From Escherichia phage NC35: a DNA stretch of 6,039 bases. The stretch lies in the sequence record NC_007820.1. One strand, given 5' to 3'. Both the position numbers and the translations under genes were made by a program. The notes beneath the pieces were generated by a model that made no database searches, had not been told where the DNA came from, and saw only the letters and a program-made list of their open reading frames with translations. The number at the start of each line of letters is the position of its first letter. Positions within the stretch are counted from its first letter, which is position 1. Shown one piece after another: positions 1 to 5,061 of this stretch.

Positions 1-26
1 TTGTTGACATTCCCTGAACCCTTATG

Positions 27-64
27 AGACTCTTGCTTCAACGAAACGAAGTAGGAGTCTTTTT
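27..64 (+). terminator. Hairpin (about 12 bp stem, 28-39 pairing with 48-59, two G-U pairs, 8-nt loop) followed by TTTTT; possible intrinsic terminator downstream of gene H on the circular genome. Its right arm contains the Shine-Dalgarno of ORF 65..433.
   Basis: Seen in sequence: GACTCTTGCTTC (28-39) is complementary to GAAGTAGGAGTC (48-59), followed by a T-run at 60-64. By analogy, phiX174 has a terminator after H. Stability not computed. Confidence 0.4.
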
Positions 65-433
65 ATGAAACCAGCTCATCGCCTTTATCATCCTGTTCTC
101 GGTTCTTGGCTGTTCAAGTGCCCTGTTTATATCCGTTATGAGCATCTTCATCATGGTCGTCTTATCAAGGTTCGTGCTGTTCGTGACCTTTCTCCGCGTC
201 AGCAGTTGATTGCTAACCCTAAAAATTGCTTTGACGTTGTCATTGCTGAGATTGATGTTACTCACCTTTCTGTTACTTTGTACGATTTTGAAGCTGAGGA
301 GTATGCTGAGTGTGATTCCGGTACTATGGAGCTTCTTCTTTCTCAGGTAAATTCTGGCGAGGTTATTCGCTCCTCCGAAGACCTGTTTGTTGATGTTGAC
401 GATATGGATTGGCTTTATGAAATTGCGGAGTAA
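65..433 (+). CDS. Hypothetical protein, 122 aa, with a basic N-terminal half and a strongly acidic C-terminal half; not part of the canonical phiX174 gene set.
   Basis: ATG at 65 preceded by AGGAG (53-57) with 7-nt spacing; stop TAA 431-433. Third codon positions are T-rich, as in the known phage genes here. Same strand as all other genes. No recognisable similarity to phiX174 proteins by eye. Confidence 0.5.
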   Translation: MKPAHRLYHPVLGSWLFKCPVYIRYEHLHHGRLIKVRAVRDLSPRQQLIANPKNCFDVVIAEIDVTHLSVTLYDFEAEEYAECDSGTMELLLSQVNSGEVIRSSEDLFVDVDDMDWLYEIAE

Positions 434-436
434 ATT

Positions 437-526
437 ATGGAAACTGTTATCGGAAAACTTATTGCTCTGGCTGTTGTTGCTCTTATGCTGTATGGAATTG
501 CCCGTTTGATTTGGAGGTTTCCGTGA
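437..526 (+). CDS. Small hydrophobic peptide, 29 aa (METVIGKLIALAVVALMLYGIARLIWRFP), possibly a single-pass membrane peptide.
   Basis: ATG at 437 with GGAG (427-430) 6 nt upstream, starting 3 nt after the ORF1 stop. Hydrophobic core flanked by K and R/W residues; T-rich third codon positions. Below the length cut-off of the supplied ORF track, so translated by hand. Confidence 0.35.
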   Translation: METVIGKLIALAVVALMLYGIARLIWRFP

Positions 527-699
527 AATATTTTAGTTTGGTAGATGAACATTATGCTTACTGCCCTGATACAAGGATTTTGCACATCACTCGTAGTCGT
601 GTTTCTGACCCTCGCTATGAGCGTCGCTTTCTTACTGATGAGGAGCATTTTGCACTTTTGGATTGGTTGAAAAATCGTCCAATATACATCAATTCTTGA
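523..699 (+). CDS. Hypothetical protein, 58 aa, GTG start overlapping the stop of the preceding small ORF (GTGA).
   Basis: GGAGG (513-517) lies 5 nt upstream of GTG 523; GTG 523-525 overlaps TGA 524-526 of ORF 437..526, suggesting translational coupling. Phage-like codon bias. The ORF track gives 511..699 from a TTG start with no Shine-Dalgarno; I prefer the GTG start. Confidence 0.35.
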   Translation: MKYFSLVDEHYAYCPDTRILHITRSRVSDPRYERRFLTDEEHFALLDWLKNRPIYINS

Positions 700-729
700 C
701 AGATAGTTTTACTACGAGGACTTTTTCGT

Positions 730-2214
730 ATGGCTACTGAAGTTTTCTCTGATGTTGTTAAGACCGTCTGGTCCCACGCTACGGCTAAGCATGCCCATCT
801 TCGTATGGCTGTTCAGGTTGATAACCGCAGTCGCCTTCTTTCTGACCTTGTTTATCAGTTGGAAAAACGCCTTTCTGAAGAGACTCATTTAGATGATGAG
901 ACTCTTGCTGTTTATGAATCTCAGACCGCTCTTCTGGAAGACCATATGGCTCTGGTTCGGAAGTGTGCTGCCCAACTTGATAATAGTAACACTATAGACC
1001 ACCGTACCCCTTTGGATGCCGAATGTGTTTTCCTGTTTGAAATGATTTGCCCAGGTGTTCGCTACGGTAAAACGTTGAATTCTCTTTGGTCTAAGTATGT
1101 TGCTCAATGGCCTGAGAAGTTAATTCGTCAAGAGTTAGACATGGTTAAGCCTTTATCCTTTAAGGATGAGGTTGCTAAGTACATGGAGAAGATGCAGGAA
1201 AAAACACGTAAAAATCGCATGACTCAAAAAGTAATTAATGATATGCGTATTGCTCACCAAAAGGGCTGGTTTTTCGTATTTGATACGTTGACACTTGCTG
1301 ATGACCGTTTGCAGGCATTTAATGAAAACCCCAATGCTCTTCGTGATTATTTCAGGACTGTTGGTCGAGCTGTTCTGCGCGCTGAAGGTCGTTCGGTTAA
1401 GGATTCCTACAACGACTGCTATCGCTATCTTTGTGTGCCGGAGTTTGGAGGTCAGCACGGTCGTCTTCATTGGCACGTTGTGCATATGGTGCGGACTCTT
1501 CCTTTGGGAAGTCACGACCCTAATTTCGGTCGCAAGGTACGTAATTATCGCCAGATTAACTCGTTCCGTGGCATGTGGCCTTATGGCTTCACGCAACCGA
1601 TAGCTGTACGCTATCAACATGATGCTTATTCTCGCAAAGGTTGGTTGTGGCCTGTTGACAAATCAGGTAAAGCAATGCAGAGTAAGCCCTATCAGGCGGT
1701 CGCATGGTATGTGACCAAGTATGTAGCCAAGCAATCTGACCAGCGTCAGAAAGCTATTACTGAGAGACAAAAAAAATGCAAGAATCCACTTATGGCAATC
1801 TGTCTGAAAAAGGAATTCAGAGTTCGCAGCAGCCGGAAGCTCGGAATGGAGTTACCTTCGATGGCGCATCTCAGCAACAAAGTGCTTCTGGAACTGAGCC
1901 GAATCAGCTTCGATTCCAGTCCTCTGTATCAGATAGTGAAAGAGAACGCCAAAAAGCAATTGACCTTGAACATCGGCGCACTGCCTTTGCACGTCATTTT
2001 GGATGTGCGCCCGGAAGTGAGAAGTATGTTGAAAAATATCCGTCGTTTGATGAAAAAGACACCCGAGTTCAATTGGCAGAGTTCTATCGCTTCAATGACG
2101 GTCACCTTAAAAAATGGGGATATTTCTGATGAAGCACGTCAATACATTATTGATGCAGGAATTACGCCTTTTGATTTGCGAGCTAAAGCGACTCAAACTT
2201 TCGGCGGTAAGTGA
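730..2214 (+). CDS. A: Replication initiation protein A (rolling-circle HUH endonuclease), 494 aa.
   Basis: Clear similarity to phiX174 protein A across the conserved core (FVFDTLTLADDRL, NPNALRDYFR, GRLHWHVVH HUH-type motif, YVTKYVAK two-tyrosine active-site motif, C-terminal DISDE...AGIT...GGK). GAGGA (716-720) precedes ATG 730. An in-frame stop at 697-699 rules out a longer N-terminus. Confidence 0.95.
   Translation: MATEVFSDVVKTVWSHATAKHAHLRMAVQVDNRSRLLSDLVYQLEKRLSEETHLDDETLAVYESQTALLEDHMALVRKCAAQLDNSNTIDHRTPLDAECVFLFEMICPGVRYGKTLNSLWSKYVAQWPEKLIRQELDMVKPLSFKDEVAKYMEKMQEKTRKNRMTQKVINDMRIAHQKGWFFVFDTLTLADDRLQAFNENPNALRDYFRTVGRAVLRAEGRSVKDSYNDCYRYLCVPEFGGQHGRLHWHVVHMVRTLPLGSHDPNFGRKVRNYRQINSFRGMWPYGFTQPIAVRYQHDAYSRKGWLWPVDKSGKAMQSKPYQAVAWYVTKYVAKQSDQRQKAITERQKKCKNPLMAICLKKEFRVRSSRKLGMELPSMAHLSNKVLLELSRISFDSSPLYQIVKENAKKQLTLNIGALPLHVILDVRPEVRSMLKNIRRLMKKTPEFNWQSSIASMTVTLKNGDISDEARQYIIDAGITPFDLRAKATQTFGGK
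973..1002 (+). other. Viral (+) strand origin of rolling-circle replication, a 30-nt conserved element inside gene A; predicted nick between G979 and A980.
   Basis: CAACTTGATAATAGTAACACTATAGACCAC matches the phiX174 origin 30-mer (CAACTTG/ATATTAATAACACTATAGACCAC, recalled from memory) at 27 of 30 positions, in the equivalent place within A (encoding ...LDNSNTIDHR...). Confidence 0.85.
1219..2214 (+). CDS. A*: A* protein, an in-frame internal restart of gene A (332 aa), inferred by homology to phiX174.
   Basis: Internal ATG at 1219 corresponds to the phiX174 A* initiator position just upstream of the conserved HADGW/HQKGW segment. No strong Shine-Dalgarno seen; call rests on synteny only. Confidence 0.45.
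   Translation: MTQKVINDMRIAHQKGWFFVFDTLTLADDRLQAFNENPNALRDYFRTVGRAVLRAEGRSVKDSYNDCYRYLCVPEFGGQHGRLHWHVVHMVRTLPLGSHDPNFGRKVRNYRQINSFRGMWPYGFTQPIAVRYQHDAYSRKGWLWPVDKSGKAMQSKPYQAVAWYVTKYVAKQSDQRQKAITERQKKCKNPLMAICLKKEFRVRSSRKLGMELPSMAHLSNKVLLELSRISFDSSPLYQIVKENAKKQLTLNIGALPLHVILDVRPEVRSMLKNIRRLMKKTPEFNWQSSIASMTVTLKNGDISDEARQYIIDAGITPFDLRAKATQTFGGK
1776..2129 (+). CDS. B: Internal scaffolding protein B, 117 aa, encoded within gene A in a different frame.
   Basis: C-terminal similarity to phiX174 B (AEFYRF...GYF terminus), acidic and Gln-rich N-terminal half, nested in A as in phiX174. Confidence 0.9.
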   Translation: MQESTYGNLSEKGIQSSQQPEARNGVTFDGASQQQSASGTEPNQLRFQSSVSDSERERQKAIDLEHRRTAFARHFGCAPGSEKYVEKYPSFDEKDTRVQLAEFYRFNDGHLKKWGYF

Positions 2215-3030: not shown

Positions 3031-3044
3031 GGGGCTTCGGCCCC
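3031..3044 (+). terminator. J-F intergenic hairpin GGGGC(UUCG)GCCCC; likely terminator or mRNA-stabilising stem-loop.
   Basis: Perfect 5-bp G/C stem closing a C(UUCG)G tetraloop, immediately followed by TATAAGGAT (the F Shine-Dalgarno). phiX174 has a J-F intergenic hairpin at the equivalent position. Confidence 0.5.
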
Positions 3045-3059
3045 TATAAGGATTTTTAA

Positions 3060-4343
3060 ATGTCAAATGTACAAACTTCCGCTGAGCGTATCCCTCATGA
3101 CCTGTCTCATCTGGTTTTTGATGCAGGCAAAATTGGTCGTTTAAAAGTTGTTTCTTGGACTCCTGTTGTTGCAGGTGATTCTTTTGAGCTTGATATGATT
3201 GGCGCTATTCGCCTCTCCCCGCTTCGTCGTGGTCTTGCTGTTGACTCTCGCGTTGACTTGTTCACGTTTTATGTTCCTCATCGTCATGTATATGGTGAGC
3301 AGTGGATTGAGTTTATGAAGCAAGGTGTTGATGCTGCTCCTCTGGCTCCTGTTCAGTGCTCTCGTGGTTGGGATAGTGCGCAGTATCTCGCTACTATTCC
3401 GTCTAGTAACTTAAAGGTTCCTAAGTTCCTTCATCAAGGTTACCTGAACATTTATAATAACTATTTTAAAGCTCCGTGGATGGATGACTTGACTTATGCT
3501 AACCCGTCCAATATGAAAGGTGAAGACGTTCGTTTTGGTGTTCGTGCATGTAACTTGAAAACTATTTGGACCGCTCCGCTTCCTCCGGACACTGAAACCT
3601 CTCATTCTATGGAGACTGAGTCTAACTCCATTGACATTATGGGTTTGCAAGCCGCTTATGCTCAATTACATACTGAGCAGGAGCGTGATTACTTCATGAC
3701 TCGTTATCGTGATATTGTTAATGAATTTGGTGGTAGTACTTCTTATGATGCGGATAATCGTCCTTTGCTTGTTATGCATTCTGAGTTCTGGGCCTCAGGC
3801 TATGACGTCGACGGCACCGACCAAAGCTCTCTCGGTCAGTTCTCCGGTCGTGTCCAGCAGACGTTTAAGCATTCAGTACCGCGATTCTTCTGTCCTGAGC
3901 ATGGCACTATGTTCACACTCGTATTGGTCCGCTTCCCGCCGACTCATGAAATGGAGATGCATTACTTAGTTGGTAAAGAAGATTTGACTTATACTGATTT
4001 GGCTTGTGACCCGGCTTTGATGGCTAACTTGCCTCCGCGTGAGGTTAATATGTCTCAGTTCTTCCATTCTGGAAGTGCTAGTGCTAAGTTTAAAATTGCT
4101 GAAGGCCAGTGGTATCGCATGCAGCCTGACCGTGTTGCGCTGCCGTATAACTATCTTGATGGTTTTCCGTTCTATAGTGCGATTCCGTCTGATGATATTA
4201 AGCAGCGTGTTCTGGTTAATACTGATAACTACGATGAGGTTTTCCAGTCTATGCAGCTTGCTCACTGGAATATGCAGACCAAGTTCAACTGCACGATTTA
4301 TCGTAATATGCCGACTACTCGTGATTCTATTATGACCTCTTGA
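3060..4343 (+). CDS. F: Major capsid protein F, 427 aa.
   Basis: Extensive similarity to phiX174 F from MSN-QT-AER-PHDLSH through the C-terminal NLPTTRDSIMTS; same length as phiX174 F. AAGGA (3048-3052) upstream of the ATG. Confidence 0.97.
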   Translation: MSNVQTSAERIPHDLSHLVFDAGKIGRLKVVSWTPVVAGDSFELDMIGAIRLSPLRRGLAVDSRVDLFTFYVPHRHVYGEQWIEFMKQGVDAAPLAPVQCSRGWDSAQYLATIPSSNLKVPKFLHQGYLNIYNNYFKAPWMDDLTYANPSNMKGEDVRFGVRACNLKTIWTAPLPPDTETSHSMETESNSIDIMGLQAAYAQLHTEQERDYFMTRYRDIVNEFGGSTSYDADNRPLLVMHSEFWASGYDVDGTDQSSLGQFSGRVQQTFKHSVPRFFCPEHGTMFTLVLVRFPPTHEMEMHYLVGKEDLTYTDLACDPALMANLPPREVNMSQFFHSGSASAKFKIAEGQWYRMQPDRVALPYNYLDGFPFYSAIPSDDIKQRVLVNTDNYDEVFQSMQLAHWNMQTKFNCTIYRNMPTTRDSIMTS

Positions 4344-4349
4344 TTATGT

Positions 4350-4363
4350 GGGGCTTCGGCCCC
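4350..4363 (+). terminator. F-G intergenic hairpin GGGGC(UUCG)GCCCC, identical to the J-F hairpin.
   Basis: Same 14-nt stem-loop as at 3031-3044, again followed by TTAAGGAT (the G Shine-Dalgarno). Confidence 0.5.
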
Positions 4364-4926: not shown

Positions 4927-5061
4927 AAGGCCGCCGCACTCCCGGTTATATGCCTGCCCAGTGTAGGGCGGACCGAGCCGTACGGAGATACCCGATAAAC
5001 TAGGAACGTGGAAGGCGCAAGCCGCCTTCCATCCTGCTAAGCCTAAAGGAGACTTTCAGCT
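4927..5061 (+). other. Structured, GC-rich G-H intergenic region (135 nt) with at least two hairpins and an 8-bp palindrome; candidate complementary (-) strand origin or primase recognition site.
   Basis: Hairpins at about 4954-4971 (CTGCCC / GGGCGG, 6-nt loop) and 5009-5031 (GGAAGGCG / CGCCTTCC, 5-nt loop), a CCGTACGG palindrome at 4978-4985, and CTG at 5034-5036 just 3' of the second hairpin. G4-type phages place a DnaG-dependent origin in an untranslated hairpin-rich region. Confidence 0.4.

Follow-up and report, generated by a model that had tools for sequence, protein, structure and literature searches.

ORF1 in the H–A region

The DNA analysed here, a stretch of 6,039 nucleotides (nt) from Escherichia phage NC35 (NC_007820.1) that is called the window below, represents, in circularly permuted form, the whole genome of a microvirus of the alpha3-like genus Alphatrevirus (Bullavirinae). 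It begins directly behind the H stop codon and closes with the same stop codon, and its genes follow in the order A, C, D, J, F, G and H, with B and K nested within A and E within D. The coliphages NC3, ID32, WA13, WA45, ID21, NC29 and ID62 are 90–94 % identical to it with 100 % of the length aligned, and alpha3 and St-1 are about 86 % identical. The subject of this work is ORF1, an open reading frame (ORF) in the region between genes H and A (positions 1–729), which is usually labelled intergenic. It occupies positions 65–433 of the plus strand, with an ATG at 65 and a TAA at 431–433, and encodes 122 amino acids (AA) with a basic, near-invariant N-terminal (N) lobe and an acidic, variable C-terminal (C) lobe. 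Judged by the sequence layout, ORF1 is the first cistron of a compact putative cassette that also comprises ORF2 (29 AA) and ORF3 (58 AA). The next canonical gene 3' of this cassette is gene A, which encodes the replication initiator (positions 730–2214, plus strand; Pfam PF05840, E = 5e-59). The evidence leaves hardly any doubt that ORF1 is a real gene, that it encodes a protein and that it is confined to alpha3-like microviruses.

The frame is open over 122 codons in 13 of the 14 complete genomes, with St-1 as the exception, and is intact on every metagenomic alpha3-like contig with sufficient upstream DNA. An earlier note on this DNA, made from the letters alone, had proposed a host-interaction protein and named the conservation of the frame in related genomes as a check, and this conservation was found. 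The ratio of non-synonymous to synonymous divergence (dN/dS) was calculated pairwise by the Nei-Gojobori method, with the same alignment read in the two other frames as controls. It was 0.19 for ORF1 and 1.25 and 1.76 for the shifted frames, with 43, 34 and 96 variable sites at codon positions 1, 2 and 3. By part, the ratio was 0.067 for codons 1–65 and 0.34 for codons 66–122. The overall value falls inside the range of 0.05–0.51 covered by canonical genes (A 0.05, C 0.05, H 0.14, J 0.15, F 0.21, D 0.22, G 0.51). The synonymous divergence (dS) of 0.66 exceeds that of all other genes in the genome, and the constraint therefore acts on the protein and not on an overlapping DNA or RNA element. 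Codon usage agrees with that of the neighbouring genes, since the synonymous-codon log-odds are 0.38 for ORF1, 0.33 for F and 0.47 for G but negative for the alternative frames, and the third-position T content of 58 % matches F and G. Frame-specific synonymous excess, conserved length and native codon usage, the signs of purifying selection, are all present in ORF1.

Public assemblies yielded 19 clusters at 90 % identity, of which 16 have a length of 120–122 AA, two have 154 AA and one, the product of a 706-nt contig, has 211 AA. The 154-AA proteins belong to a variant lineage (contigs L016, 2008–2472, and L017, 2811–3275) with a 32-residue acidic N-terminal extension (MKPLTSSEIEVINSAICDLDDSIEEVESLVASAS), which stems from an insertion repeating the MKP start, the canonical ATG being changed to TTC. 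The hairpin loop upstream of ORF1 is enlarged in this lineage too. In St-1 (L013, GQ149088), a 1-nt deletion at about position 229 (alignment column 231) shifts the frame after NPKNC, and the sequence 3' of it still translates perfectly in the original frame. Either the sequence is in error at this point or the laboratory strain has recently mutated; in the latter case, ORF1 would be dispensable in culture. An older alpha3 record (X60322) matches ORF1 in two pieces, and in the re-sequenced DQ085810 the frame is intact. The St-1 deletion and the fact that ORF1 is unannotated in 24 of 25 GenBank records could be taken to mean that it is a chance open frame whose conservation is due to a cis-acting DNA or RNA element. 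However, the high dS with non-synonymous change held down in the ORF1 frame only, the length kept in nearly all variants, the native codon bias, the confident fold prediction and an Rfam search without a match all contradict this explanation. Its probability is negligible, and as far as sequence comparison can tell, the selection analysis effectively excludes it.

The distribution of ORF1 is narrow. A HMMER search of 1.84 billion representatives with the ORF1 profile returned only three clusters at 50 % identity, all from alpha3-like contigs of about 6 kb. Neither ORF1, searched with tblastn, nor ORF3, which was found only in alpha3-like phages, had a match in any phiX174- or G4-like record matching the whole genome, and nothing similar to ORF1 was present in the plasmids and E. 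coli genomes searched. All Alphatrevirus records contain the three ORFs together, and so do all alpha3-like metagenomic contigs with enough upstream sequence. One alpha3-like contig (L015, 820–1209) carries an ORF1 allele of 129 AA, P0020, that is 34–35 % identical to the one in the window. Between this contig and the window, identity is 35 % for ORF1 compared to 84 % for H, 91 % for ORF3 and 80 % for A (70–91 % for the neighbouring genes), and ORF1 is therefore a divergence hot-spot. This pattern points to allele replacement or very fast evolution limited to ORF1. P0020 nevertheless keeps the charge dipole and the ANPKNC motif. Another metagenomic ORF1 (L021, 210–578) is mosaic-like, being of the alpha3 type up to about residue 84 and of the WA13 type in the remainder, which suggests recombination inside the acidic lobe.

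Except for phage Lilleven, the H–A region has no coding annotation in the GenBank records of the clade. Lilleven is the only record of the collection in which all three ORFs are annotated as coding sequences, listed as 'hypothetical proteins' (QBZ71502–QBZ71504; UniProt A0A4D6DYX2 for ORF1). These are true orthologues without functional annotation; the ORF1 counterpart is 95 % identical, and its BFVD model superposes with a TM score of 0.98. The old alpha3 record M25640 already marks ribosome-binding sites before all three ORFs. ORF1 was thus evidently noticed by early sequencers and is known as a database sequence, but it is uncharacterised. No name or function for ORF1–3 was found in the literature searched, which did not include Rokyta et al. 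2006 and Kodaira et al. 1992, and the Lilleven paper is silent on its own three hypothetical proteins. A 2026 Alphatrevirus genome paper gives only ten canonical genes, with ORF1 not among them (PMC13029530), and a study of annotation completeness in phiX174 was limited to ORFs common with phiX174.

Leader, cassette and expression

The 64 nt before ORF1 contain several signals on the plus strand. A TTGACA resembling a -35 element (positions 4–9) lies three bases past the H stop codon and is invariant in all 14 aligned genomes and also present on contig L016. It is followed by a 16-nt spacer whose sequence varies but whose length is fixed in the aligned genomes, and then by GAGACT (positions 26–31), a weak candidate -10 element in which A2 and T6 are kept and which reads TAGACT in phiK. 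A relaxed promoter scan returned only weak candidates within the window. From the same position, a hairpin resembling the intrinsic terminator T_H extends over positions 26–64, with a 14-bp stem (26–39 and 48–61), a loop at 40–47 and a T-run at 60–64. Its predicted RNA fold has an energy of -20.1 kcal/mol (z = -6.35; none of 200 shuffles was equally stable), and the stem is kept in 12 related genomes. The Shine-Dalgarno sequence of ORF1, AGGAG (positions 53–57), is located seven bases ahead of the ATG within the hairpin's 3' arm, and M25640 annotates it as a ribosome-binding site.

This layout is that of the pA/T_H leader of phiX174, as shown by comparing window positions 1–64 with positions 3918–3983 of NC_001422 (L018, 219–284). 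Both leaders have, in the same order, a TTGACA past the H stop codon, a spacer of 16–17 nt, a GC-containing hairpin with the GGAG ribosome-binding site in the 3' arm, a T-run and an ATG. The phiX174 sequence reads TTGACA-N17-TTTCAT, followed by the hairpin GCCTCC..GGAGGC, T6 and ATG, and its TTGACA, the -35 element of pA, is located nine bases past the phiX174 H stop codon. The transcription start is annotated within the hairpin loop, for phiX174 only. Logel and Jaschke described the overlap of promoter and terminator in phiX174 and measured about 70 % termination at T_H (bioRxiv 10.1101/2020.03.05.979765). The two leaders differ in their -10 element and stem, since the phiX174 -10 is TTTCAT with a stem of 6–8 pairs, whereas the window has the weaker GAGACT and a stem of 14 pairs. 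They also differ in what they precede, because the ATG opens gene A in phiX174 but ORF1 in the window, where gene A follows 665 nt further on. By this comparison, ORF1 occupies the site where gene A starts in phiX174, and the cassette appears to be an insertion that separates gene A from its ancestral control element.

On the analogy with phiX174, transcripts from the pA-like promoter would start near the hairpin loop and lack the 5' arm, so that the Shine-Dalgarno sequence would be exposed. Read-through transcripts from upstream would terminate at the hairpin or mask the Shine-Dalgarno sequence. From this we infer a low-level expression of ORF1 from the pA-like promoter, together with ORF2, ORF3 and, in the window genome, gene A. 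The chances that this expression model is correct are about even.

The cassette is tightly packed, with a gap of 3 nt between ORF1 and ORF2, an overlap of 4 nt between ORF2 and ORF3, and conserved ribosome-binding sites. ORF2 (positions 437–526, plus strand), whose GGAG lies within the end of ORF1, encodes a hydrophobic peptide of 29 AA (METVIGKLIALAVVALMLYGIARLIWRFP), is intact in all 14 genomes and has been called as a gene on metagenomic contigs. With a mean Kyte-Doolittle hydropathy of 2.07, it probably forms one transmembrane segment. The variable sites, 11/3/10 by codon position, leave the second positions conserved, as would be expected under selection for hydrophobicity. The dS of ORF2 is unusually low at 0.16, which hints at an additional constraint at the nucleotide level. 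ORF3 (positions 523–699, plus strand; 58 AA) starts with GTG, or with ATG in ID32 and NC29, is likewise intact in all 14 genomes and has a dN/dS of 0.086. Its start overlaps the ORF2 stop as GTGA, which suggests translational coupling. AlphaFold2 predicts four strands followed by a helix (predicted local distance difference test, pLDDT, 82).

The TTGACA -35 element of a gene A-proximal promoter (positions 696–702, plus strand) overlaps the ORF3 stop codon. In the relatives, gene A has a strong promoter of its own here, TTGACA-N18-TATATT with 11 of 12 consensus matches, a second promoter that distinguishes them from phiX174. The window alone lacks 29 nt that are found in 13 of 13 relatives and include the TATATT -10; the deletion point is between 702 and 703, and no good replacement -10 was formed within positions 696–730. 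Because this -10 is deleted, transcription of the essential gene A must cross ORF1–3 in the window genome, and the loss is indirect evidence that the cassette is transcribed. A 98 %-identical ORF1 was observed on a contig of 6,038 nt, which suggests that the lineage with the promoter deletion is natural.

Further observations concern other intergenic parts of the genomes. Identical GGGGCTTCGGCCCC hairpins are located after gene J (window 3031–3044) and after gene F (4350–4363) and are probably the terminators T_J and T_F. The G–H intergenic region (4927–5061) is GC-rich with several hairpin-forming stretches; the primase-dependent complementary-strand origin of alpha3, St-1 and phiK is presumably located in this region. 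In NC29, the C–D intergenic region (L009, 2480–2712) is about 190 nt longer than in the relatives, which explains the genome size of 6,259 nt.

Charge split, predicted fold and constraint

The bipartite charge described in the earlier note, with a basic N-terminal and an acidic C-terminal half, was confirmed. Residues 1–55 contain 4 K, 6 R, 5 H, 1 D and 1 E (net +8), and residues 56–122 contain 9 D, 10 E, one H and no K (net -18), with R102 as the single basic K/R residue, as had been remarked. The whole protein has 21 acidic, 11 K/R and 6 His residues among 122 and an isoelectric point (pI) of 4.9. When the same residues were shuffled 20,000 times, 0.015 % of the shuffles reached a best-split charge asymmetry as large as this (p~1.5e-4). 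The split is kept in 33 of 33 homologues, with +6 to +9 in the N part and -13 to -20 in the full-length C part, and even P0020 (34 % identical) has +6/-14. The mean identity of the acidic lobe is 66 %, the same as for the spike protein G, yet its charge always stays within the stated range. This retention of acidity amid sequence turnover fits a functional acidic surface on a putative accessory protein.

AlphaFold2, run with a 19-sequence alignment, predicted one compact beta-rich model with a mean pLDDT of 90.8 and a predicted TM score of 0.83. Strands are predicted at residues 3–9, 13–17, 21–28, 33–40, 57–64, 69–73, 78–82, 104–110 and 118–121, and helices at 44–49 and 85–96. The model has no segment of three or more residues with a pLDDT below 50, and no disorder is predicted. 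The acidic half is therefore, by prediction, a folded lobe within the compact fold and not the tail that had been supposed at first. A disordered acidic C-terminal tip of the SSB type was also considered and rejected, with residues 104–110 and 118–121 being predicted strands.

Constraint is unevenly distributed along the protein. It is tightest at residues 31–65 (GRLIKVRAVRDLSPRQQLIANPKNCFDVVIAEIDV), which span the charge boundary and have a dN/dS per segment (omega) of 0.02–0.05. The basic N lobe is near-invariant with an omega of 0.02–0.10, and the C-terminal VDDMDWLYEIAE is conserved. The weakest constraint was found at residues 81–100, where omega reaches up to 0.85. Positive selection in the acidic lobe was tested as well, and in none of 78 genome pairs did pN/pS, the corresponding ratio of proportions of sites, exceed 1. 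No hydrophobic segment is present, as the maximum hydropathy over 19 residues is 1.23. From the model, we would expect the ORF1 product to be compact and soluble, to be rich in beta structure and to carry an electrostatic dipole that is conserved.

Possible roles and comparison with known systems

Our best guess for ORF1 is an accessory role in binding a host factor. The protein would be a non-catalytic, stoichiometric binder of a host macromolecule, and its acidic face would contact a host protein that is basic and probably binds nucleic acids. The turnover of ORF1 is fast, as is typical of host-facing accessory genes, with contig L015 as the example given above. The host-interaction proposal of the earlier note gains from the clade-specific gene and from the acidity kept despite this turnover, whereas no relation to Ocr or ArdA was found by sequence or fold and the tightest constraint spans the charge boundary. 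Several points weigh against our interpretation. A standard consensus promoter scan of positions 1–729 returned nothing and left the weak GAGACT -10 unreported. The hairpin stem shows no compensatory changes in the 12 related genomes, and its conservation is explained equally by terminator function alone. Omega never exceeds 1 in the loosest part of the acidic lobe (0.85), and relaxed constraint explains this as well as an arms race would. A low-level expression context like that of gene A would also be unusual for a stoichiometric decoy. Considering all this, the binder mechanism by itself is tentative and has somewhat less than an even chance, and for the package of a real clade-specific gene, the expression model and this mechanism belief slightly outweighs doubt.

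A specific sub-case of the binder model is a DNA mimic with an anti-restriction or anti-defence function, whose acidic lobe would resemble the phosphate backbone of DNA and inhibit a DNA-binding enzyme of the host, e.g. a type I restriction enzyme. The phages alpha3, St-1 and phiK form plaques on E. coli B or K-12, which have type I restriction, whereas phiX174 uses the restriction-less strain C, and this host difference would be consistent with such a function, as would the clade-specific occurrence of ORF1 and the persistent acidity of its C lobe. The latter has 19 acidic and one basic residue in 67 (28 % acidic), a density near that of Ocr with 34 in 116 (PMC4872106). However, there is no Pfam match to Ocr or ArdA, the N lobe carries +8 with a pI of 4.9 for the whole protein, and the double-stranded form of a microvirus precedes gene expression, so that a late decoy would protect poorly. 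The window contains no EcoKI and no EcoBI site, which is uninformative at about 0.7 expected sites each. A DNA mimic is improbable. Slightly less improbable, though still doubtful, is a protein that binds nucleic acids and regulates either phage replication or the expression of gene A, acting cis-proximal to gene A, with the basic beta-sheet lobe binding single-stranded DNA or RNA and the acidic lobe modulating or recruiting. This would agree with the near-invariant basic N lobe, with the inferred co-transcription with gene A, at least in the window genome, and with low-level expression signals resembling those of gene A. Yet the Pfam scan revealed no known nucleic-acid-binding motif, and phiX174- and G4-like phages replicate without any such protein.

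Another possibility is that ORF1 is part of a membrane-associated module with ORF2 and ORF3 that might serve superinfection exclusion, lysis tuning or DNA delivery at the inner membrane. The three ORFs always co-occur and are tightly packed and probably translationally coupled, and one of them is a hydrophobic 29-mer, but ORF1 has no hydrophobic segment itself and no similarity to known exclusion or lysis proteins was found. We regard such a module as unlikely, about on a par with the DNA mimic. Metal coordination by the C and H residues of the N-terminal half had been suggested in the earlier note. Although all homologues, P0020 included, retain H5, H9 and C55, the residue C19 is replaced by Arg in P0020 and H27 and H30 vary, so that no conserved ligand set is left. 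The set of three to four invariant Cys/His residues in a recognisable spacing that marks a zinc finger is absent, as is any CxxC or HxxH spacing or a match to a zinc-binding family or fold. A zinc-finger-like protein is accordingly very improbable. Compared to these alternatives, binding of a host factor is still preferred for ORF1.

Phages of the phiX174 type serve as textbook examples of a minimal genome and are a preferred chassis in genome design, both synthetic and generative. They are usually described with exactly eleven genes, and this list has been treated as closed. The present results indicate that three additional reading frames, corresponding to about 10 % of the genome, exist in one of the three genera, with ORF1 and ORF3 under clear purifying selection. 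These frames are unannotated in nearly all reference records and have no known family or fold match. As a consequence, the annotation needs correction, positions 1–729 should not be handled as dispensable spacer in genome refactoring, and evolutionary work has to account for a cassette that stands between gene A and its ancestral control element. If ORF1 inhibits a host factor, this would be the first accessory or counter-defence function in the subfamily, and it could help explain the growth of alpha3-like phages on K-12 and B strains. The full claim, that ORF1–3 form the first recognised accessory module in phiX174-type microviruses and that ORF1 is a dipolar inhibitor with a new fold acting on a host DNA-binding or defence protein, is a long shot at present.

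In comparison with known systems, ORF1 shares the strand and codon bias of the canonical Bullavirinae genes (A, A*, B, C, D, E, F, G, H, J, K) but stands outside these eleven. The Pfam, PHROGs and PADLOC scans of ORF1–3 gave nothing except weak hydrophobic noise for ORF2. For ORF1, the best hit of a sequence profile search against the PDB was a chance match to a xylanase (E = 0.7), and Foldseek against BFVD returned the Lilleven orthologue only. Hence, the family, PDB and fold searches contained no confident match to an unrelated known function, which had been proposed as a further check. Ocr (T7 gp0.3) and ArdA, both DNA-mimic anti-restriction proteins, are small proteins of phages or mobile elements like ORF1. 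There is no Pfam-A match to the Ocr family at E <= 1 and no PDB sequence match below E = 0.7. The elongated all-helical fold of Ocr, which resembles bent B-DNA, differs from the predicted fold of ORF1, which is mostly beta strand, and neither the sequence family nor the three-domain elongated fold of ArdA was recognised. Acidity extends over the whole surface of Ocr, which has 34 acidic and 6 basic residues among 116 (PMC4872106). The comparison of charge with DNA mimics proposed in the earlier note therefore shows ORF1 as a whole to be far less acidic, with its 21 acidic residues being accompanied by 11 K/R and 6 His. An Ocr-like density is reached only in residues 56–122 (28 % compared to 29 % in Ocr; PMC4872106). 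The expression context differs as well, since that of ORF1 resembles the low-level gene A and not an early abundant gene. Among small phage accessory proteins, ORF1 would thus be a new orphan that is clade-specific, under selection and dipolar, with a compact predicted fold.
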